Below are positions 26,721-50,795 of a DNA stretch of 64,000 nt, one piece after another. Origin of the DNA: a phage. The stretch is from assembly GCA_011915565.1 (NCBI GenBank), contig GCA_011915565.1_3920.1; one strand, written 5' to 3'. Numbering within the stretch: position 1 is the stretch's first letter; every line of letters starts with the position of its first letter. The translations under genes and the position numbers were made by a program. Below the pieces are notes generated by a model. It did no database searches, was not told the DNA's origin, and worked only from the letters and a program-made list of their open reading frames with translations.

Positions 26721-27761
26721 ATGGAGAAGTACACATTAACAAAGCTTCCCGATTCAGTTACACATGTCTTTATTGACTCTGACAGCATTGCCTATAAAGG
26801 TGCTTGTGTAGTTGAGAAAGCAAAGTATAAATACGTTAATAAACTCACAGCAGAAGAATCTGAACCATTTGATAATGCGAAAGATGCTGCAAGATGGTTA
26901 GCAGACCAGAGAATCCTTGTGGAAGAGCTTGGCCTGACATTTGATGAAGATGAATGGGAAAGACAGACTTGGAAAGAAGCTAAGAGTGAAAAAGAAGCTA
27001 TCATGGCTACTCAACAGGTGCTTCAGGAATGGCTTAAGGTTGTTGGGAAAGAGAGAACTTGGGTAGGCTATTTAACAGAGAAAGGTGTGCATAAACATAA
27101 AGACGTTAAAGGTCTTGAGCACCAATATCAAGGCAACCGTAAAGATGCTGTCACACCAACACACTTAGTTGCTTGTCGTGAATACCTTCTGTCAAGACCA
27201 GAGTTTAAGCTCTTAAAGGGGGGCTTCGAAGCCGATTCAATCGTAATCGCTAAAGCTGAAAAGATGGGTAAGAAAGCTGCTCTTATGAGTATTGACAAAG
27301 ACCTTCGACAAGCTGAAGGAACTTATTGTATTGATATGACTTATGAAAAGTCACCACTAATTTTTATTGCTGACAATAATGTTGGTGATATCTGGGATTG
27401 CCCTATCAAATCAAAACCAAAAGCTGCAAAAACAGTTGGCGTAGGTTTTAAATTCTTGTGTTATCAGGCTGTTGCTGGAGATAATGCAGACAACTACTTC
27501 GGCCTAAAAGGTGCTGGTAAAGTAGCTGTGATGAATGCTTTAGAGGGTAAAGAGACCTACAAAGAGTGTCTTGACGCTATCTATGAACTTTATGCTAAAA
27601 AAGATTCTTATACCTATGTGTCATGGGATGGACAGACTGTTACCAAAACACCATTAGAGTTAATGGAACAGCATTTCTGGATAGCATATCAAGAGAGAAA
27701 TCCAAAAGACAATTTCTCTTTCAAGAAATATAATTGGGAGCCGTGTATGAATGAAGATTAA
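26721..27761 (+). CDS. 5'-3' exonuclease / flap endonuclease
   Basis: N-terminal HVFIDSDSIAYKGA resembles the FEN acidic pocket; GDNADNYFGLKGAGKVA resembles the H3TH motif. Confidence 0.6.
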   Translation: MEKYTLTKLPDSVTHVFIDSDSIAYKGACVVEKAKYKYVNKLTAEESEPFDNAKDAARWLADQRILVEELGLTFDEDEWERQTWKEAKSEKEAIMATQQVLQEWLKVVGKERTWVGYLTEKGVHKHKDVKGLEHQYQGNRKDAVTPTHLVACREYLLSRPEFKLLKGGFEADSIVIAKAEKMGKKAALMSIDKDLRQAEGTYCIDMTYEKSPLIFIADNNVGDIWDCPIKSKPKAAKTVGVGFKFLCYQAVAGDNADNYFGLKGAGKVAVMNALEGKETYKECLDAIYELYAKKDSYTYVSWDGQTVTKTPLELMEQHFWIAYQERNPKDNFSFKKYNWEPCMNED

Positions 27762-28248
27762 AGGATTTGGCAATTGCCCCACCTACGGTCATTGGGTATC
27801 TTTATGTGGGGAAGTTGACCCCACTAAACATTTTGGCTTTGTCTATTTAGTGCACTGTAAGAAGACTGGACAATATTATATCGGAAAGAAACAGCTTAAC
27901 AGCGTGACAAAAAGAAAAGTTGCTGGGAAGACTCGGAAGAAGGTAGTCACTAAGGAGAGTGATTGGATGACTTACGAGACTTCTTCTGAGTATATTAAAA
28001 AAGATATTGAGAGCTTTGGAAAAGAATTTTTTGACTTTTACATCATTCAGACCTACTACACAAAAGGTGGCCTAGTCTATGGTGAAGCAAACCTTCAACA
28101 TAAATTCGATGTAATGACAAAAAGGATTGACTCGAAGCTCAGACTCTTCTACAATGCCAATATTGCAGCAATTAAGTTTATTACTAAAGAAACTTATGAA
28201 GATGCTGAAAAAAGAATCCATAAGGTAATGAAAGCAAATTGTGCTTGA
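27751..28248 (+). mobile_element. GIY-YIG-like (T5orf172-type) nuclease domain protein
   Basis: GFVYLVHCKKTGQYYIGKK matches a GIY...YIG spacing; free-standing between replication genes. Confidence 0.45.
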
Positions 28249-38969: not shown

Positions 38970-39240
38970 AGAAAAGTGGGAGATTTTACCATTAGTCAGT
39001 GAAGGAGGTAATGGTTGTGAAATGTACATGATACGTGGTCATGTTCCAGAGCCAATTGCACTTGAGATGGTAAACAACTTTACAGATGGTTCTTACAAAG
39101 ACTTAGGCGAACCAACTGTCAAGCAACAATGGGTTAAACCTGTACCAGACAGCACAGGTAACTGTAGTGTACTTTATCACGTTGTAGACCCTGCAAAATG
39201 CAAATCTGCAATGGCAGTAACAAACGTAACTTTTGATTGA
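38962..39240 (+). CDS. hypothetical protein
   Basis: 92 aa ORF. Confidence 0.4.
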   Translation: MAKEKWEILPLVSEGGNGCEMYMIRGHVPEPIALEMVNNFTDGSYKDLGEPTVKQQWVKPVPDSTGNCSVLYHVVDPAKCKSAMAVTNVTFD

Positions 39241-40133
39241 GAGAGAAAACTATGAAAACATCTATCCGTGTTACAGTTCATTCACCAACTAAAGGGACTC
39301 ATGAAGAAGAGTTTAACATCGTCCAATTCCCTTCTGGTGAGATTGGTGGACACTTTTCGCCAGAGTTTGTTGATTTTACTGCTTATGCAGCATCATCCAT
39401 CAACAATGTGATTATGATTGTAAAAGGTTATGACAAGGACACATTGTTTGCTGTGGCACTTGCTAAAGAAGCAATTGATGATTTAATTCCTCATGATTAT
39501 GCTTTAAAGACTGTCATCTTTTACTACTTACCAAATGCACGATATGACCGTCACATGTTTAAAGGTGACGCAGCAGCTTTAAAGGTTTTTGCTAAACAGA
39601 TTAATGCAATGGGATTTGGCGCAGTCTGTGCAGTTGACCCTCACAGCTATGTACCAGATAACCTGTTTAACTGCTTCCAGAGTATTCCTCAAAAGGAAAT
39701 TGCAGTCCACTATGCAAATGACCCACTGATTGATTACTTAGTAGCCCCAGATGCAGGTGCTGCTAAGAAGATTGCAGAGACTGCTAAAGAGGTGGATAAA
39801 CCATACATCACAATGTCTAAAGTACGCAACCTTAAGACTGGTGAAATTACTGGTATGCGAATCCTTGATGATGTTGATTTGACAGATAAAACCGTCATGA
39901 TTCTGGATGATATCTGTGATGGTGGTCGAACCTTCATAGAAGCAGCTAAACATCTTCGTGAAGCAGGTGCAAAACGTGTGGAACTCTATGTAACACACGG
40001 TATCTTCTCTAAAGATGTTGAAAACCTTCTTGACAATGGCATTGACCACATCTACACTACAAACTCTTTAGGGGAAGCTAAAGACCGTGGCTTAACACAT
40101 TATGGTCAAGTTACTGTAGCAAACCTTGATTGA
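39237..40133 (+). CDS. prs: ribose-phosphate pyrophosphokinase-like enzyme (Prs family; candidate ADP-ribose pyrophosphokinase)
   Basis: PRPP-binding loop VMILDDICDGGRTF; phosphoribosyltransferase-type fold. Confidence 0.8.
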   Translation: MREKTMKTSIRVTVHSPTKGTHEEEFNIVQFPSGEIGGHFSPEFVDFTAYAASSINNVIMIVKGYDKDTLFAVALAKEAIDDLIPHDYALKTVIFYYLPNARYDRHMFKGDAAALKVFAKQINAMGFGAVCAVDPHSYVPDNLFNCFQSIPQKEIAVHYANDPLIDYLVAPDAGAAKKIAETAKEVDKPYITMSKVRNLKTGEITGMRILDDVDLTDKTVMILDDICDGGRTFIEAAKHLREAGAKRVELYVTHGIFSKDVENLLDNGIDHIYTTNSLGEAKDRGLTHYGQVTVANLD

Positions 40134-40178: not shown

Positions 40179-41960
40179 ATGACTAAATCACTTTATGCAG
40201 TACCAGCAGGTTTAAACGCAGATGCTTACAAATCTGGTCATGTTTACCAGTACCCTAGTGCAACAGAGTACTTGATGTTCAACCTGACACCACGTAGTGA
40301 CAAATGGTTTAACAGCCCCTTAGCAATTGATGGTGTAGTAGCTTTTGGTATTCAACGTTTCGTTAAAGATTACTTGATAGACCACTGGAACGCCACTTTC
40401 TTTGAACGTGATAAAAAAGAAGCCATTGATGAAATCTTAGAAGTTATGAATGGTGTTCTGGGTAAAGATGCTATCGGTCGAGAGCATTGGGAAGCACTTC
40501 ACGACTTAGGTTATCTACCAGTTGAAGTATACGCTGTAGAAGAAGGTACAGTTGTTCCTATGCGTGTACCAATGATTGTCTTCCAGAACACTGTTTCAGG
40601 TTTCCATTGGGTAGCGGGATATCTGGAAGATGCTTTCTCTGCTGAGATTTGGAAGGCTTGTACCATTGCAACTATTGCATTGCATTATAAACGCATCTGT
40701 AAGAAGTGGGCTGACCTTACTTGCGACAATGACTTACATTTACCTTATCAGTGCCATGACTTTGCTATGCGTGGTATGTCCGGCTTTACTGATGACGCAT
40801 TTAACGCTGTAGGCCACTTAACCAGCTTTAAAGGGACTGATAGCTTCCCTGCTGTATATACAGCTAAACGCATCTACGGACAGTCTTACCCAGTCTCTGA
40901 TATTGGTGGTTCTGTACCAGCCACTGAACACTCTGTAATGTGTGCAAACATTGCTTGGGAAGGTGGTAATGAGTTGGTTGAAGAAGAAAGACGCTTTAAA
41001 GGTGAGTTGCAAACCTTCCGTCGCTTCTTAACAGAAACTTATCCAACTGGTATTGCAAGTGTTGTTTCAGACACTTATAACTTCTGGAGAACTGTGTCAG
41101 AAATCTTACCAGCACTCCGTAAAGAAATTATGGAACGTGATGGCAAACTGGTAATTCGTCCTGACTCTGGAGACCCTGTACACATTGTCACAGGTTATAA
41201 AGCAATCCACTTAGAGTGTGCTAAAAAGGCTTATTATGAGCACCTAAGCAATCTGGAAGCCAGTGACACAATGCTGAATGCTGTTCTGAACATGAAGCTT
41301 GAAAACATCAGCTATGGTATTGCTGGATGGCTACTGTCAGAAGGCTACGAAATGGTTGTTGACAGAGAAGACTTTGAAGTTGCTGATACAGTGATGTTGA
41401 AGAACGCTTATATGGTTGGTTCTGCAAACGTTGTAACACGCCCTGTAGCAGAGATTGATGGAGCTATTAAGACCTTGTATAACATCTTTGGAGGAACTAT
41501 TAACTCTAAAGGTTTTAAGGTACTGGATGAGCACATTGGCCTTATCTATGGCGACTCTATCACGTTGGAACGTGCAAACGAAATCCTGAAGCGTCTGTAT
41601 GAAATGGGGTTTGCAAGCTCTAACGTGGTGTTTGGTGTAGGCTCTTACACTTACCAGTACATGACTCGTGACACCTTTGCATTTGCTGTCAAAGCAACTC
41701 TTGCAAGCATTGGTGGCAAAGAGATTATGCTTGCAAAAGACCCTAAAACAGATAGTGGTGTTAAGAAATCTGCCTTTGGTGGTGTAGCACCTATGTGGGA
41801 TGGTGAGAATTTGAAAGCTGTAGATGGCTATGGATTCCAGAGCTTTGCAGATGCACTTGAACATCCAGCTTGTGCTTTACGTTTAGTCTTTAGCGACTCT
41901 GAGCAGTACGGTTACACAACTCTTGGTGATATTCGAAATAATATTGACAATCAGCTTTAA
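40179..41960 (+). CDS. nadV: nicotinamide phosphoribosyltransferase-like enzyme (NAMPT/NadV family)
   Basis: 593 aa; size, composition and position next to a Prs-like gene fit NAMPT/NadV. Confidence 0.8.
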   Translation: MTKSLYAVPAGLNADAYKSGHVYQYPSATEYLMFNLTPRSDKWFNSPLAIDGVVAFGIQRFVKDYLIDHWNATFFERDKKEAIDEILEVMNGVLGKDAIGREHWEALHDLGYLPVEVYAVEEGTVVPMRVPMIVFQNTVSGFHWVAGYLEDAFSAEIWKACTIATIALHYKRICKKWADLTCDNDLHLPYQCHDFAMRGMSGFTDDAFNAVGHLTSFKGTDSFPAVYTAKRIYGQSYPVSDIGGSVPATEHSVMCANIAWEGGNELVEEERRFKGELQTFRRFLTETYPTGIASVVSDTYNFWRTVSEILPALRKEIMERDGKLVIRPDSGDPVHIVTGYKAIHLECAKKAYYEHLSNLEASDTMLNAVLNMKLENISYGIAGWLLSEGYEMVVDREDFEVADTVMLKNAYMVGSANVVTRPVAEIDGAIKTLYNIFGGTINSKGFKVLDEHIGLIYGDSITLERANEILKRLYEMGFASSNVVFGVGSYTYQYMTRDTFAFAVKATLASIGGKEIMLAKDPKTDSGVKKSAFGGVAPMWDGENLKAVDGYGFQSFADALEHPACALRLVFSDSEQYGYTTLGDIRNNIDNQL

Positions 41961-46191: not shown

Positions 46192-46740
46192 ATGAAGAAA
46201 TTGATTCTAGGTTTGTGCTTAATGTTTACAGCACACTTATCTTATGCAGTTGACTGCCCAGAGCTATCAATTAGCCAAAAAGTGAACATGTTAAAAGCTT
46301 ACCAGTATGGTGAGAATAACATGGGTAAAGGTTGGGGTATCACTCTAGCAGCTATAGCCTTACAAGAGTCAGAGTTAGGTCTGAAGGTAGAAAATAAAAA
46401 GACCCATGACTATGGTATCTTCCAGAATCACTTGAAGACTGTTGTAAAGCGTAACAAAATTAGTCCTAATGTTGCTAAAAAGAAACTCTTAAAAGATTTT
46501 GACTATGCTGCGAAGGAAACGCACAAAGAACTTGAGTTTTGGACAAAGGTGCATGGTCAGCCAAAGTCAAAGAAGACTTTACAAAAAGTTTTAGCATCAT
46601 ATAATGCTGGGTATTCGTACAGAATCCCTAAAGCTAAGAAGTATTCTCAAGATGTCTATAACAACATGAAAGTTATTGCTCAATGTGAATTTGCAACAAA
46701 CATTTCTAAGGTAAACCATGAAAAAATTAAAAAAGTCTGA
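46192..46740 (+). CDS. secreted lytic transglycosylase-like (SLT domain) protein
   Basis: Signal peptide MKKLILGLCLMFTAHLSYA; SLT-like motifs ALQESELG, YGIFQ, SYNAGYSY. Confidence 0.55.
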   Translation: MKKLILGLCLMFTAHLSYAVDCPELSISQKVNMLKAYQYGENNMGKGWGITLAAIALQESELGLKVENKKTHDYGIFQNHLKTVVKRNKISPNVAKKKLLKDFDYAAKETHKELEFWTKVHGQPKSKKTLQKVLASYNAGYSYRIPKAKKYSQDVYNNMKVIAQCEFATNISKVNHEKIKKV

Positions 46741-47413
46741 TGAAGTCCTGTGCCACGCTTATGACTTACATCCTCATGAGTTAGGTCTTGATTCCTGTGT
46801 ATGGACTCCAGAACAGTGCAGAGATTTTGAAGACACTGCAAGAGAGGTTGTATGTTCACTTGAAGAGTTCCACACATCAGAACCCATTGTGAACGTTGTG
46901 GACAAAGAGACTGGACAAACTATAGGTGTAAGGCGTGATAGTTTAGTGATAGTCAATAAAGACCTTGTAGAAAAAGGTAACCTCATCTTAGCAGATATTG
47001 ATGGTGTTCTTACAAATTTTAATCACGAAGATTGCTCAACGGAATTGACTGATGGGTCATTCTCACAGTACACTAATCTTCTTGATTCTGTAAGAGCAAA
47101 ACCAACATATGTTTTCAACATTATTGATGCAATTGCAAATCATGCAGCAGTTGGACTCTTGACAGCAAGAGGTGAATCTCAGAGAATACCTACTGAGATG
47201 TTTTTAAGGCACAATATAGAGCATGATTACTTGCTTTTTATGCGTGGTTTTGGAACTAACTCTATAAGTGCAGAAAGTTTGAAAGTGAGGATGATTCAGT
47301 CTTGCATTCTTCCTTACTTTAATATAGTATGCTTTATAGAAGATACAGAGAAGAATGTTCAGAAGGTAAACAGAATCCTTCCACACATTAAAACCATGTT
47401 AGTTAAACATTGA
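46718..47413 (+). CDS. HAD-superfamily phosphatase-like protein
   Basis: ILADIDGVLTNF resembles HAD motif I (DxDGT/V). Confidence 0.4.
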   Translation: MKKLKKSDEVLCHAYDLHPHELGLDSCVWTPEQCRDFEDTAREVVCSLEEFHTSEPIVNVVDKETGQTIGVRRDSLVIVNKDLVEKGNLILADIDGVLTNFNHEDCSTELTDGSFSQYTNLLDSVRAKPTYVFNIIDAIANHAAVGLLTARGESQRIPTEMFLRHNIEHDYLLFMRGFGTNSISAESLKVRMIQSCILPYFNIVCFIEDTEKNVQKVNRILPHIKTMLVKH

Positions 47414-47899: not shown

Positions 47900-47924
47900 C
47901 AGGCTCCTTCGGGAGCCTTTTTCA
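47900..47924 (+). terminator. intrinsic terminator
   Basis: caggctcc-ttcg-ggagcct then ttttt. Confidence 0.65.
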
Positions 47925-47941: not shown

Positions 47942-48289
47942 ATGACATTTAAAGAGTTCTGTCAAGCTACTTTCATAGTTGTTTTCTTAGTTGGGGCAGG
48001 TGTCTGGGGAGGATACTCTTACAGAGACTACCAAGTTGCTGAAACTGAGCTAAACAATGAGAAGCTGATAAGTGTTGCTAAAGATGCTTATCAGGAAGGA
48101 TTAGCTACACTGAGCACCAATTACAAAAATGATTTGAAAGATGTGCTTGCTAAGAATAAGCACACAAAAGAGGTACTAACGTATGAAAAAACTAAGCCAG
48201 AGTTTTATAATGTTTGTGTTACTGATAATTATGTCAGGGTGTTCAACGAACAAAGTGAACAGTACATTCAAAAACTCCCAAGTAAGTGA
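47942..48289 (+). CDS. putative i-spanin (Rz-like)
   Basis: N-terminal TM helix (ATFIVVFLVGAGVWGGY) then coiled-coil-like periplasmic region; overlaps a lipoprotein ORF in another frame. Confidence 0.45.
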   Translation: MTFKEFCQATFIVVFLVGAGVWGGYSYRDYQVAETELNNEKLISVAKDAYQEGLATLSTNYKNDLKDVLAKNKHTKEVLTYEKTKPEFYNVCVTDNYVRVFNEQSEQYIQKLPSK

Positions 48290-48452
48290 GGGTGACAAGT
48301 ACACTCAAGAAGAATCACGGTATATCATCAAAGGTAACACAGGCAGTGATGTAGCAGCAGCACTTGAGTTCTACCGTGACGGCTTTTACCAGTGTACAAT
48401 TAAAGCTAATAACCTTATTGACATGATTTTATTAGGAAATAAACAGCAATGA
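48183..48452 (+). CDS. putative o-spanin (Rz1-like lipoprotein)
   Basis: Signal peptide with lipobox (LLIIMSGC); starts inside the 3' end of the TM/coiled-coil ORF. Confidence 0.4.
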   Translation: MKKLSQSFIMFVLLIIMSGCSTNKVNSTFKNSQVSEGDKYTQEESRYIIKGNTGSDVAAALEFYRDGFYQCTIKANNLIDMILLGNKQQ

Positions 48453-48718
48453 CAGAGAATGAAGATACTTTTTACGTAGAAGGGTACTTACTGTTACCGC
48501 GACCAAAAGAAACTTATATGCGAATTGACTTCATACCAACCATTATGGATAATGTGATGTGTCATATCTTTATGCAGGGTGTCACAGCACAGCTTAAGTA
48601 TGTTGGTAAAGAGTGCAAAATAAAGGTTGACACTCATCCAGAAATCAAAGAGAATCACTACACATGGTTCTTACCAGACTCTAAAGAAATCTTAGCAGTT
48701 CTTAAAACGAGGAAATGA
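48449..48718 (+). CDS. hypothetical protein
   Basis: 89 aa, ATGA-coupled. Confidence 0.4.
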   Translation: MTENEDTFYVEGYLLLPRPKETYMRIDFIPTIMDNVMCHIFMQGVTAQLKYVGKECKIKVDTHPEIKENHYTWFLPDSKEILAVLKTRK

Positions 48719-49029
48719 TTATGCAATTCCAGCCAACAAATCGTGGATTTTCTTATGCAGAATTTAAAGATGCTAAAGGGGAAATTTGTACTTTACAAGA
48801 AAGTTCATCATACGAACCATGTATCTGGTTAGGTGCTAAAGAGGTCTCTGTTCAGTACCTAGATAATGGCTGGAAAACACTTGACATCCCAGCATTAGTT
48901 GGTAAAGATTTTGTAGGTAATCAAAGAATGAAGCTCAATCAAGAACAGGTAAAAGAGTTGTTGCCGTACCTCCAATACTTTGCTGAAAATGGTGAATTGC
49001 CAACAGAGGAACTTACAAATGCAGATTAA
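48715..49029 (+). CDS. hypothetical protein
   Basis: 104 aa, coupled. Confidence 0.4.
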   Translation: MIMQFQPTNRGFSYAEFKDAKGEICTLQESSSYEPCIWLGAKEVSVQYLDNGWKTLDIPALVGKDFVGNQRMKLNQEQVKELLPYLQYFAENGELPTEELTNAD

Positions 49030-49345
49030 TGGAAGAGACTTTGTAGCCGTTTACTACGAGAAAGACAAAGAAGTTGGCGTAGCACAAGTATCTTATGGCA
49101 ATGGTAAGTGGCTATATGGAACAATCGCAGTAGTAGGAACAAGAAGTGATACAAAAACTTTTAAAGATTGTGTTGACCTTCTTGAAGAATCCATTCAGAA
49201 TCACTGGTGTCTGATATGGATGACTGACAACGAAGTGATAGAACGCTTCAAAAAGATTGGTATCAACATCGACAGTATTGAGCATGTTGATTTATATGAG
49301 CTAACTGAGAAGGTAAACTATGAAAGTAATACTAGCCAGAGATAA
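49019..49345 (+). CDS. hypothetical protein
   Basis: Start set at MQINGRDF (track ORF 48980). Confidence 0.4.
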   Translation: MQINGRDFVAVYYEKDKEVGVAQVSYGNGKWLYGTIAVVGTRSDTKTFKDCVDLLEESIQNHWCLIWMTDNEVIERFKKIGINIDSIEHVDLYELTEKVNYESNTSQR

Positions 49346-49547
49346 AAAGACACGGAAACTCATCCGGTCAGCGGTGTTCATTGGACGAAATGAGGTCATC
49401 CCATTTACAGCAAATGATGTGATAACTTACCGGAAGAACTTAGTATTTACTGACTGTTTACGTGGCTTCATCTCCCAACCGTTGGAAGACTTTAAAAGCC
49501 GTTGTGGTAAAGGTATCATCATTCAAGAGGCAATTATCAATGGCTGA
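49320..49547 (+). CDS. hypothetical protein
   Basis: 75 aa ORF. Confidence 0.35.
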   Translation: MKVILARDKKTRKLIRSAVFIGRNEVIPFTANDVITYRKNLVFTDCLRGFISQPLEDFKSRCGKGIIIQEAIING

Positions 49548-49740
49548 CTTCTGCAAAGACTGTTCTATCGAAATGTTCGGACGTGATACAGGTGACTTAA
49601 AAGGTCTTATCACTGAAGATGACTTTAAAGCTGGTTATGCAATGCCAGTAATCTGTGAAGGCTGTGGGTGTATCTGGGTAGACCACGAAGGACAACGTGT
49701 AAAACCTTCAGAAGACAAAGAATCTTGGGAGAGATGTTAA
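49540..49740 (+). CDS. small zinc-binding protein
   Basis: Start at MADFCKDC (track ORF 49462); CKDC...CEGCGC cysteine pairs. Confidence 0.4.
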   Translation: MADFCKDCSIEMFGRDTGDLKGLITEDDFKAGYAMPVICEGCGCIWVDHEGQRVKPSEDKESWERC

Positions 49741-50526
49741 ATGGGTATTGTAAAAATAATTAATGGTGATATCTTTGCCGCATTTGATAAAGGTAAGTTT
49801 GACATCATCGGTCACGGTTGCAACTGTATGAACTTAATGGGTGCAGGTATCGCTGACAAGATTTCTAAACTTTACCCAAAAGCGTATGAGACCGATACAG
49901 AAGTTTATCTGTATGCAGGTGGTATAGGTCACAAACCCTGTGAAAATTTACTAGGTAATTTCTCTGTAGCACGTTTAAAACAAGGTCGTATAGCTAATCT
50001 TTACACTCAGCTTAAGACTGGTAAAGATGCCCGATACAGTGCTTTAGAGTCATCTTTGAAACAGCTTAACAGATACTGTGAAGTTAATCAGTTGAAGAAA
50101 GTTGGGTTACCTATGATTGGTGCAGGTATCGGTGGACTTGACCCTCAAGCCGTTACCGTTATCATTAATCAGGTGATGAAGAGTGTAGATGTGTATCTGT
50201 ATGTCTACGAAGGAGAGATGTACCACAAGTTACGCTCAGGTTGGAATAACTACTGCGAACCAGAATACTTTGCAGGTGTAGTAACGTTCACAGACAATGC
50301 AGTTACCCTCTTCAGACGAAGAAAAGGTAAGATACATCAAAGTAACCCTCCGGTTGAAAAGATGTCTCTAAGTAACGCTCTAGTTACCCACCTGTCGAAG
50401 AGCAATCACAGAATTGCAGTAACATTTGGCAGTGATGCAGACACATATATCTATGCAAGGACTGATGAAGATATCGAGGAGATTTTCTCATCACAAGAAG
50501 TTACCTTCTTAGACGCAAAGAACTAA
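49741..50526 (+). CDS. macro-like domain protein (candidate ADP-ribose binding/hydrolase)
   Basis: NGDIF...DIIGHGCNCMNLMGAGIADKI and LPMIGAGIGGLDPQAV resemble macrodomain motifs (GDIT...IVNAAN..L.GGGGV and FPAISTGVYG). Confidence 0.5.
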   Translation: MGIVKIINGDIFAAFDKGKFDIIGHGCNCMNLMGAGIADKISKLYPKAYETDTEVYLYAGGIGHKPCENLLGNFSVARLKQGRIANLYTQLKTGKDARYSALESSLKQLNRYCEVNQLKKVGLPMIGAGIGGLDPQAVTVIINQVMKSVDVYLYVYEGEMYHKLRSGWNNYCEPEYFAGVVTFTDNAVTLFRRRKGKIHQSNPPVEKMSLSNALVTHLSKSNHRIAVTFGSDADTYIYARTDEDIEEIFSSQEVTFLDAKN

Positions 50527-50555: not shown

Positions 50556-50603
50556 AAGCCTTCCTTATCTGGTAAATTTTTCAGGTAAGGAAGGCTTTTT
50601 TAT
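50556..50603 (+). terminator. strong intrinsic terminator
   Basis: 11 bp stem aagccttcctta...taaggaaggctt followed by ttttttattt. Confidence 0.75.
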
Positions 50604-50795
50604 TTCAAGATTGTGCAGGTAGAGTTCTGTAGAGAAATCTGTAGAGAAAATTTTGAACTCCAAAGAGAAAATTCATTTTCAAACTGTGCAGGTAATCTCC
50701 AAAGAGCTTTTTCATTTTCAAAACGTGCAGACCCCGCTCAGGTCGGGCAAGAAAAATCATTTTAGAATTGTGCAGGTAGGTGGATGCAGGTGGGG
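50603..50795 (+). repeat. iteron-like direct repeat cluster
   Basis: Four copies of (c)attt(t)ca(a/g)a(a/t)(c/t)gtgcag(gta) at about 50605, 50674, 50713 and 50758, plus tandem ctccaaagag-N6-cattttcaaa and ctgtagagaaa x2. Confidence 0.6.

Follow-up and report, generated by a model that had tools for sequence, protein, structure and literature searches.

Identification of a macrodomain in the product of the ORF at 49741 to 50526

Which ADP-ribose (ADPR) derivative does a phage macrodomain act on, and does it cooperate with an NAD+ reconstitution pathway encoded in the same genome? This question is raised by the open reading frame (ORF) located at positions 49741 to 50526 of a 64,000-nucleotide (nt) stretch of phage DNA (contig GCA_011915565.1_3920.1; the whole stretch is referred to as the window), whose product had been described in a first-pass annotation as a macrodomain-like protein. 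The protein is most likely a counter-defence macrodomain hydrolase, predicted from its sequence to remove the 1''-substituent of ADP-ribose. We tentatively propose, with real reservations, that it is a putative DNA de-ADP-ribosylase of the type of T4 Tk.4, directed against the host toxin DarT2. The window belongs to the genus Felixounavirus (Ounavirinae), with 93 to 96% nt identity to ~200 Escherichia and Salmonella phages (megablast). The gene and the parts of its product that carry the assignment are as follows.

49741 to 50526, + strand: complete coding sequence for a macrodomain and an orphan C-terminal domain (ATG start, 261 amino acids [aa], TAA stop; ORF list)
49741 to 50211, + strand: macrodomain, residues 1 to 157, Poa1p/TARG1 structural class, phage Tk.4/Adpp clade (Pfam, AlphaFold2, Foldseek, identity to Tk.4)
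49813 to 49824, + strand: H25-G-C-N28, catalytic-site motif (His25 and Asn28 invariant in alignment A1 and in all Adpp/Tk.4 sequences)
49837 to 49854, + strand: loop 1, M33-G-A-G-I-A38, GxG ADP-ribose-binding loop (M33, G36, and A38 invariant)
49996 to 50010, + strand: N86-L-Y-T-Q90 with invariant Gln90 (alignments)
50110 to 50136, + strand: loop 2, P124-M-I-G-A-G-I-G-G132, second glycine-rich ADP-ribose loop (alignments)

The ORF and both macrodomain-like motifs quoted in the first-pass annotation were present exactly where it had placed them (GDIF...DIIGHGCNCMNLMGAGIA at residues 9 to 38 and LPMIGAGIGGLDPQAV at residues 123 to 138). The Pfam Macro profile (PF01661) matched residues 25 to 141 over profile positions 2 to 117 of 118, at 32.3 bits (E = 1e-7), above the gathering score of 22, and PHROG_335 ("phosphatase") covered the full-length protein (E = 1.9e-112). 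The AlphaFold2 model of the 261-aa protein, calculated with 29 homologues as the input, had a predicted local distance difference test score (pLDDT) of 90 and a predicted template modeling (TM) score of 0.88, the pLDDT of the macro part being ~90. Foldseek matched residues 1 to ~157, a three-layer alpha/beta/alpha fold, to solved macrodomains with a probability of 1.00 and TM scores of 0.75 to 0.85 across TARG1 (0.83 to 0.85), DarG (0.81 to 0.84), Poa1p (0.75), and viral Mac1. The profile comparison and the structure prediction that had been proposed as checks therefore both recovered the macro fold, and the macrodomain call stands, since neither of them failed to find it. Together, the profile match and the model indicate that the ORF product contains a genuine macrodomain, and the modeled fold places this part of the protein in the TARG1/DarG/Poa1p structural class.

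TARG1 was also the top sequence match in the PDB, over residues 72 to 156. The best match in NCBIfam and PADLOC was the DarG macrodomain (47.6 bits, E ~1e-12), a score that misses the cutoff of 250 of the DarG equivalog NF048014, of which only profile positions 4 to 152 of 338, corresponding to the macro part, were aligned. The macro fold stops near residue 156 and is followed by ~105 residues. A paralogue search detected no second copy of the macrodomain or of the C-terminal domain in the window.

Proteins 95 to 98% identical to the window macro protein are found in ~150 Felixounavirus records, and phage homologues number ~2,800 in all. In the ~200 related records, the gene is labeled "phosphatase," "putative macro domain protein," "O-acetyl-ADP-ribose deacetylase," or "hypothetical protein"; since it is so annotated in public records, its macro identity is already public knowledge. 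The macro identity and the functions of the family, described in 2025-26 for single-domain homologues, are thus known, whereas the conserved two-domain architecture with a fast-evolving orphan C-terminal domain is new. We found no paper that mentions this architecture, which is present in the genus from which NARP1 was defined. One preprint on Migulavirinae and Thoeris was set aside as not relevant, its macro mentions referring to the host ThsA protein. The existing public annotation, the missing TARG1/DarG catalytic lysine, and the orphan status of the C-terminal domain are points that go beyond the first-pass annotation.

Active-site residues and predicted reaction

Family invariance was assessed in an alignment of 29 homologues (A1), in which His25, Gly26, Asn28, Cys29, Met33, Gly36, Ala38, Asn86, Leu87, Thr89, Gln90, Pro124, Gly127, and Gly129 are invariant. 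The glycine-rich stretches M33-G-A-G-I-A38 and I126-G-A-G-I-G-G132 are invariant or nearly so. In the N-terminal G-D motif, G9 is nearly invariant in A1, and D10 is presumably the adenine-contacting Asp of macrodomains. The GxG loop is a hallmark of the macrodomain fold (PMC9503650). Sequence alignments matched His25 to Poa1p His23 and Asn28 to DarG Asn22 and PhiKZ AdfM Asn23, both of which have roles in the catalytic site (PMC13309987). Where TARG1 (K84), DarG (K80), and PhiKZ AdfM (K78) have their catalytic lysine, the window protein has Gln90, and Gly131 takes the place of TARG1 Asp125; both residues of the TARG1 dyad K84/D125 are thus missing. Every member of the tree described below has His25, Asn28, and Gln90, including the Ounavirinae fusions, the Tk.4 group, and the macro proteins encoded next to NARP1.

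In the proposed mechanism, the two glycine-rich loops would bind ADP-ribose and the His25/Asn28/Gln90 site would cleave the C1'' substituent of the distal ribose, thereby freeing ADP-ribose. The substrate would be ADP-ribosyl-thymidine set by DarT2 on phage single-stranded DNA. The Ounavirinae would then have their own equivalent of T4 Tk.4/AdfM in the window protein, a counter-defence enzyme resembling an orphan antitoxin.

A protein that binds ADP-ribose without cleaving it, acting as a sponge or reader of ADPR-derived immune signals (e.g., Thoeris gcADPR or His-ADPR) or as a sensor regulating the C-terminal domain, is hardly to be expected. Some macrodomains are purely readers (PMC9503650), and the canonical TARG1/DarG lysine is missing, but the invariant His25, Asn28, and Gln90 are present in the enzymatically active Adpp. 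The strict conservation of the site residues, together with a ratio of nonsynonymous to synonymous substitution rates (dN/dS) of 0.013 for the macro part, also fits an enzyme rather than a binder.

Tk.4-type versus Adpp-type activity

Two characterized phage proteins of this clade provide candidate activities. Only one T4 gene, tk.4, is required on hosts expressing DarTG2; its clean knockout sensitizes the phage, and it was named adfM, for anti-DarT factor macrodomain (HIDEN-SEQ; preprint 10.1101/2025.11.20.689424). The T4 homologue was identified as tk.4 because the tblastn matches in T4-like phages are flanked by vs on one side and by tk.3..tk on the other. Adpp is a Poa1p-like macro protein found inside some NARP1 operons; it dephosphorylates ADPR-1''-phosphate (ADPR-1''-P), the product of aRES defence, after which NARP1 rebuilds NAD+ (Osterman et al., preprint 10.64898/2026.01.28.702374). 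These homologues back the suggestion of the first-pass annotation that the protein might reverse ADP-ribosylation immunity or process ADPR derivatives, Tk.4/AdfM acting against DarTG2 and Adpp on ADPR-1''-P.

Several observations favor a Tk.4-type activity. The closest characterized homologue is T4 Tk.4 (82 bits versus 52 bits for the Adpp of Vibrio phage Gary, gp137, whose sequence was taken from Table S1 of 10.64898/2026.01.28.702374). The DarG macrodomain tops the NCBIfam and PADLOC searches, the gene lies outside the NARP1 operon, and Gly26/Thr89 are of the Tk.4 type. The macrodomain is under very strong purifying selection, as reflected by its dN/dS of 0.013, and an extra domain is easier to rationalize with a macromolecular target than with a soluble metabolite.

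Positions 26 and 89, which lie beside the active site, differ among the groups of macro proteins. Gly26 and Thr89 are present in the window protein, in Tk.4, and in all 29 sequences of A1. Substring matching across all of Table S1, with its ~128 NARP1-adjacent macro proteins, gave Gln or Val at position 26 in ~111 of them; at position 89, ~110 (~85%) have Gly, Ala, or Ser. These counts are phylogenetically non-independent. The signature counts tilt our reading of the sequences toward the Tk.4 type without deciding the matter. In a neighbor-joining tree (200 bootstraps), macro proteins carrying the C-terminal domain formed one clade (99% bootstrap) and Tk.4 and its allies a separate one (98% bootstrap), the NARP1-adjacent macro proteins forming several more.

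Other observations weigh against this assignment. The placement of the Ounavirinae clade relative to the Tk.4 and Adpp clades depends on deep nodes with bootstrap values below 50%, and phylogeny was dropped as an arbiter between AdfM and Adpp affiliation for this reason. The Gly26/Thr89 signature (HGCNC/YTQ) also occurs in 13 NARP1-adjacent macro proteins of Acinetobacter and Aeromonas phages, and the NARP1-adjacent macro proteins of the PAK_P1 type score only slightly lower than Tk.4 against the window protein (68 to 76 bits). The phage itself carries NARP1, which fits the Adpp role. A DarG-like mechanism is not to be assumed, because Gln90 stands where DarG and PhiKZ AdfM have their catalytic lysine. 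The window protein and its Ounavirinae homologues are known from sequence and predicted structure alone, and the evidence for the anti-DarTG2 role of Tk.4 is purely genetic (10.1101/2025.11.20.689424).

The Adpp role brings in the NARP1 genes of the window, which correspond to the NAD+ reconstitution pair that the first-pass annotation had placed 8 kb upstream. This pair is real, with a gap of 7.8 kb.

39237 to 40133, + strand: Adps-like (PRPS-like) gene of NARP1 (Pfam Pribosyltran and Pribosyl_synth; orthologues annotated in relatives)
40179 to 41960, + strand: Namat-like (NAMPT-like) gene of NARP1 (Pfam NAPRTase and NAMPT_N)

With this role, the protein would be an ADPR-1''-P phosphatase converting the aRES product (from RES-type NAD+ phosphorolysis) to ADPR for the phage's own NARP1, in a "split" NARP1-AP pathway restoring NAD+. 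We regard this as somewhat unlikely. In its favor are the membership of Gary Adpp in the same clade with conserved His, Asn, and Gln residues, the HGCNC/YTQ signature in the 13 NARP1-adjacent proteins, and the public annotation as a "phosphatase." The HxCNC...GxGIA motif is also nearly identical to that of Poa1p, which is a bona fide ADPR-1''-P phosphatase in yeast. The window phage encodes NARP1, a system first found in Bas63, which is a Felixounavirus. However, identity to the tested Adpp (27%, 52 bits) is below that to Tk.4, ~85% of the NARP1-adjacent macro proteins differ at positions 26/89, and it is not obvious why a phosphatase acting on a soluble metabolite would require an extra domain.

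Gene order provides evidence on both sides. The order from NARP1 to the 260- to 264-aa macro fusion is fully kept in Kolesnikvirus and is kept from rIIB onward in Mooglevirus, for the part covered. Two metagenomic relatives have the rII...macro block, with macro fusions only ~33 to 35% identical. This conserved synteny across Ounavirinae genera indicates that co-occurrence of NARP1 and the macro fusion is ancient, as would suit an Adpp role, but co-occurrence is also expected from vertical inheritance of a core genome, which makes it weak evidence of coupling. The Adpp criterion in 10.64898/2026.01.28.702374 is encoding within two genes of Adps/Namat. The macro gene lies outside the NARP1 operon and this distance: the macro start codon is 7.8 kb from the end of the NARP1 pair, with over a dozen genes in between, and the two belong to separate terminator-bounded units. 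As for the coordinated NAD/ADP-ribose theme of the first-pass annotation, the NARP1-AP precedent and the co-occurrence in Ounavirinae speak for it, whereas the 7.8-kb distance, the other transcription unit, and the Tk.4-type signature do not, and coordination with NARP1 remains circumstantial.

One enzyme might combine both activities, DNA de-ADP-ribosylation and dephosphorylation of ADPR-1''-P, which is chemically plausible because both substrates are 1''-substituted ADP-ribose; we consider this improbable, the estimate overlapping with those for the two single roles.

The ADPR-PP of NARP1 has been reported to decay to ADPR-cyclic-phosphate. A metagenomic homologue of 339 aa (P0026) combines a Tk.4/Adpp-type macro domain with a cREC_REC "cyclic-phosphate processing receiver" domain (PF20274) in one protein. 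This fusion hints at a two-step salvage from the cyclic phosphate to the 1''-phosphate and then to ADPR.

The C-terminal domain

The ~100-aa C-terminal extension of the first-pass annotation corresponds to the ~105 residues past the macro fold, which were modeled as a helix and a beta-rich domain.

50212 to 50241, + strand: linker helix, residues 158 to 167 (AlphaFold2 secondary structure, block pLDDT ~77)
50242 to 50523, + strand: orphan C-terminal domain, residues ~168 to 261, six beta-strands and one helix (AlphaFold2)

The pLDDT of the C-terminal domain was 85 to 93 within the full-length model and 78.8 when the domain was modeled alone. It had no match in Pfam at E ≤ 10 and no relative in the PDB. 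Searches against PHROGs returned only its own family and a weak match to phrog_10351 (E = 0.03), and Foldseek against BFVD returned only phage SUSP2, a member of the same family. A hidden Markov model profile of the domain, compared to 1.84e9 representative proteins, retrieved only the same macro fusion and truncated copies of it. Weak multi-stretch matches to PQQ/BamB beta-propellers and to retro-element polyproteins were judged to be spurious repeat matches. In the same searches, the domain was found only behind the macro subfamily of the window protein and only in Ounavirinae-like phages, with no stand-alone copy.

The two parts of the protein evolve at different rates. Identity to the window protein was 76% for the macro part versus 45% for the C-terminal domain in the Mooglevirus type, 53% versus 20% in the homologue P0009, and 44% versus ~10% in Kolesnikvirus. 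In comparison with phage Ro111lw, dN/dS was 0.013 for the macro part and 0.149 for the C-terminal domain, which is thus under purifying selection that is ~10 times more relaxed. Only Pro174 and Gly179 are invariant in the C-terminal domain, Tyr236 being nearly so. A second enzyme, such as a cyclic phosphodiesterase, was rejected, since no His, Asp, Glu, or Lys residue is conserved, and the isoelectric points of the homologues, which range from 4.6 to 9.8, speak against a conserved DNA-binding or DNA-mimic surface. Fast evolution, combined with the lack of conserved catalytic residues or charge, makes it most likely, as far as sequence comparisons can tell, that the C-terminal domain is an accessory targeting or protein-binding module and not a second enzyme. 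A compact, constrained, fast-evolving domain devoid of relatives has the profile typical of host-virus arms-race interfaces.

Such a module could serve several purposes. The protein might be a convergent two-layer "orphan antitoxin" whose macrodomain erases an ADP-ribose mark or product and whose C-terminal domain binds and blocks the host producer (DarT2 or an aRES-type NADase), which we consider doubtful. This arrangement could mirror the DarG layout of a macrodomain and a toxin-binding domain, with an unrelated domain of unseen fold. In a variant, the C-terminal domain could dock the macrodomain onto the NARP1 enzymes, thereby closing the split NARP1-AP pathway.

Alternatively, the C-terminal domain could pick another macromolecule for de-ADP-ribosylation, namely, a protein or RNA, of host or phage, that carries ADP-ribose from a host ADP-ribosyltransferase (ART) defence (e.g., a CmdTAC-type mRNA ART) or from a phage ART. 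An accessory domain suits macromolecular targeting, the structural class is that of TARG1, DarG, and Poa1p, and macrodomains of the TARG1 class act on ADP-ribose carried by proteins and nucleic acids (PMC9503650). Conversely, the TARG1 dyad K84/D125 is absent, no homologue within the Tk.4/Adpp clade is known to have this role, and no ART is annotated in the whole genome of one close relative. We give this explanation a slim chance.

Transcription unit and genomic neighborhood

The macro gene is the final cistron of a compact + strand unit enclosed by two terminators, one at 47901 to 47918 and the other, a strong one (stem at 50556 to 50597), downstream from the gene. The TAA stop codon of the preceding ORF (49738 to 49740) directly adjoins its ATG.

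49727 to 49733, + strand: Shine-Dalgarno-like GGGAGAG, 7 nt 5' of the ATG (read from the sequence)
50556 to 50603, + strand: intrinsic terminator 3' of the macro gene, 17-bp stem (50556 to 50597) and T-run (inverted repeat)
48449 to 48718, 48715 to 49029, ~49019 to 49345, 49320 to 49547, and ~49540 to 49740, + strand: five small overlapping or abutting ORFs just 5' of the macro gene (ORF list)

The five small ORFs had no match in Pfam and are kept as hypothetical proteins in Felixounavirus and Mooglevirus. The unit opens with an i-spanin/o-spanin pair encoded by embedded ORFs (47942 to 48289 and 48183 to 48452, + strand); lysis genes sharing one unit with a putative counter-defence gene are an uncommon combination. 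Directly past the downstream terminator, the intergenic region from 50599 to 50778 (+ strand) contains an iteron-like array of three to four direct repeats ~34 to 45 nt apart. The repeats each end with ...TTCATTTTCAAAxTGTGCAGGTA (copies at 50599 to 50621, 50672 to 50694, ~50711 to 50730, and 50756 to 50778), and the exact 10-mer TGTGCAGGTA occurs three times in the array and nowhere else in the window. In some relatives, the annotation includes a small ORF on the minus strand that overlaps this array. The repeats may represent clustered promoter or other regulatory elements.

The genes separating NARP1 from the macro gene are rIIA, rIIB, one SLT-like and one polynucleotide kinase (PNK)/HAD-like gene, the spanin genes, and several small ORFs. 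The ORF at 46718 to 47413 (+ strand) is annotated as "polynucleotide kinase" (HAD-like) in relatives, for which precomputed Pfam results give only a weak or faint HAD_PNKP match. In the window, this ORF had no Pfam match at E ≤ 0.1, and its PNK assignment therefore looks weak.

The presence of this gene in the same genomic block would suit a metabolic housekeeping role, independent of defence, in which the macro protein clears ADPR-1''-P or related dead-end products, formed by RNA repair (Tpt1/KptA route) or by the spontaneous decay of ADPR-PP. Poa1p does so in yeast, ADPR-PP reportedly decays to ADPR-cyclic-phosphate, and P0026 fuses the macro domain to a cREC cyclic-phosphate processing domain. 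This role nevertheless appears very unlikely: the PNK-like ORF lacks a Pfam match in the window, such a function has no experimental precedent in phages, and the annotation of the close relative lists no RNA ligase, Tpt1/KptA, or 2H phosphoesterase. The search of that whole genome, which likewise revealed no annotated ART, sirtuin, or NADAR, weakens the readings of the protein as an eraser for a phage ART or a scavenger of RNA repair by-products, since no such genes are annotated there.

A further ORF located 22 kb upstream (27751 to 28248, + strand) is labeled "NAD synthetase" in a close relative. It encodes a SegE-like GIY-YIG endonuclease domain (Pfam E = 9e-28), and because of this domain the label looks wrong and the ORF falls outside any NAD theme.

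Significance

Felix O1-like phages are widely used in biocontrol and typing of Salmonella and E. coli, and Bas63 served as the model phage of NARP1 discovery. If the macro protein is the AdfM of this phage subfamily, its Adpp, or both, part of the resistance of these phages to DarTG2- or aRES-type defences would be explained and host range could be predicted. The clade also raises a mechanistic question, since members devoid of the DarG/TARG1 lysine have been linked to two different 1''-substituents, a thymine N-glycoside and a phosphate. As a natural two-domain variant, the window protein offers a handle on substrate targeting.

Comparison with known systems

Adpp belongs to the same broad Poa1p-like phage clade as the window macrodomain, with conserved His25, Asn28, Gln90, and loops, and its phage encodes Adps and Namat in the same genome, as does the window phage. 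Gary Adpp is 27% identical to the window macro part (52 bits), and other NARP1-adjacent macro proteins are 29 to 36% identical (67 to 76 bits). In contrast to the window protein, Adpp has HQCNC/NVYGQ in place of HGCNC/NLYTQ, lacks the C-terminal domain, and is encoded between Adps and Namat, the window gene being 7.8 kb from them in another transcription unit.

Yeast Poa1p (PDB 6LFQ to 6LFU) has HSCNC...WGGGIA, which nearly matches HGCNC...MGAGIA of the window protein (Foldseek TM score of 0.75). The Poa1p residues mutated in deposited structures (H23, S30, and F152) correspond to the invariant His25, to Leu32, and to Gly131, respectively. Sequence similarity is limited to ~40 residues, and Poa1p functions in the setting of eukaryotic tRNA splicing, unlike the phage protein.

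The macrodomain of the DarG2 antitoxin is of the same structural class (TM scores of 0.81 to 0.84 to 5M31/5M3E) and conserves the equivalent of Asn28. DarG likewise comprises a macrodomain and a C-terminal domain; the window C-terminal domain is unrelated to the latter in sequence, and no fold match to the window domain was found. K80 of DarG and K78 of PhiKZ gp104 are replaced by Gln90 in the window protein. PhiKZ gp104, also called AdfM (PMC13309987), is a true DarG-type protein that keeps Lys78 and matches M. tuberculosis DarG (E = 9e-25); it is 23% identical to the window protein. The name AdfM has been given independently to two unrelated macro lineages, T4 Tk.4 (Poa1p-like, Gln) and PhiKZ gp104 (DarG-type, Lys78). 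Identity between either protein and the relatives of the other is only ~23%, and this clash of names could lead to annotation errors. Human TARG1/OARD1 (PDB 4J5Q-S) is the best structural match (TM scores of 0.83 to 0.85) but differs by its catalytic dyad, Lys84/Asp125, replaced by Gln90/Gly131 in the window protein.

T4 Tk.4 is 35% identical to the window protein over residues 3 to 160 (E = 1e-24; 82 bits). The two proteins have all of the invariant residues in common (HGCNC, MGxGxA, NLYTQ, and PxIGxGIxGG), including Gly26/Thr89, and each is encoded by a lytic myovirus gene located outside any NARP1 operon; T4 is not known to carry NARP1. The role of Tk.4 comes from genetics, whereas the window protein is placed by comparative and structural prediction. 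Finally, Tk.4 is a single-domain protein of 159 aa, unlike the 261-aa window protein with its added folded C-terminal domain of ~95 aa.

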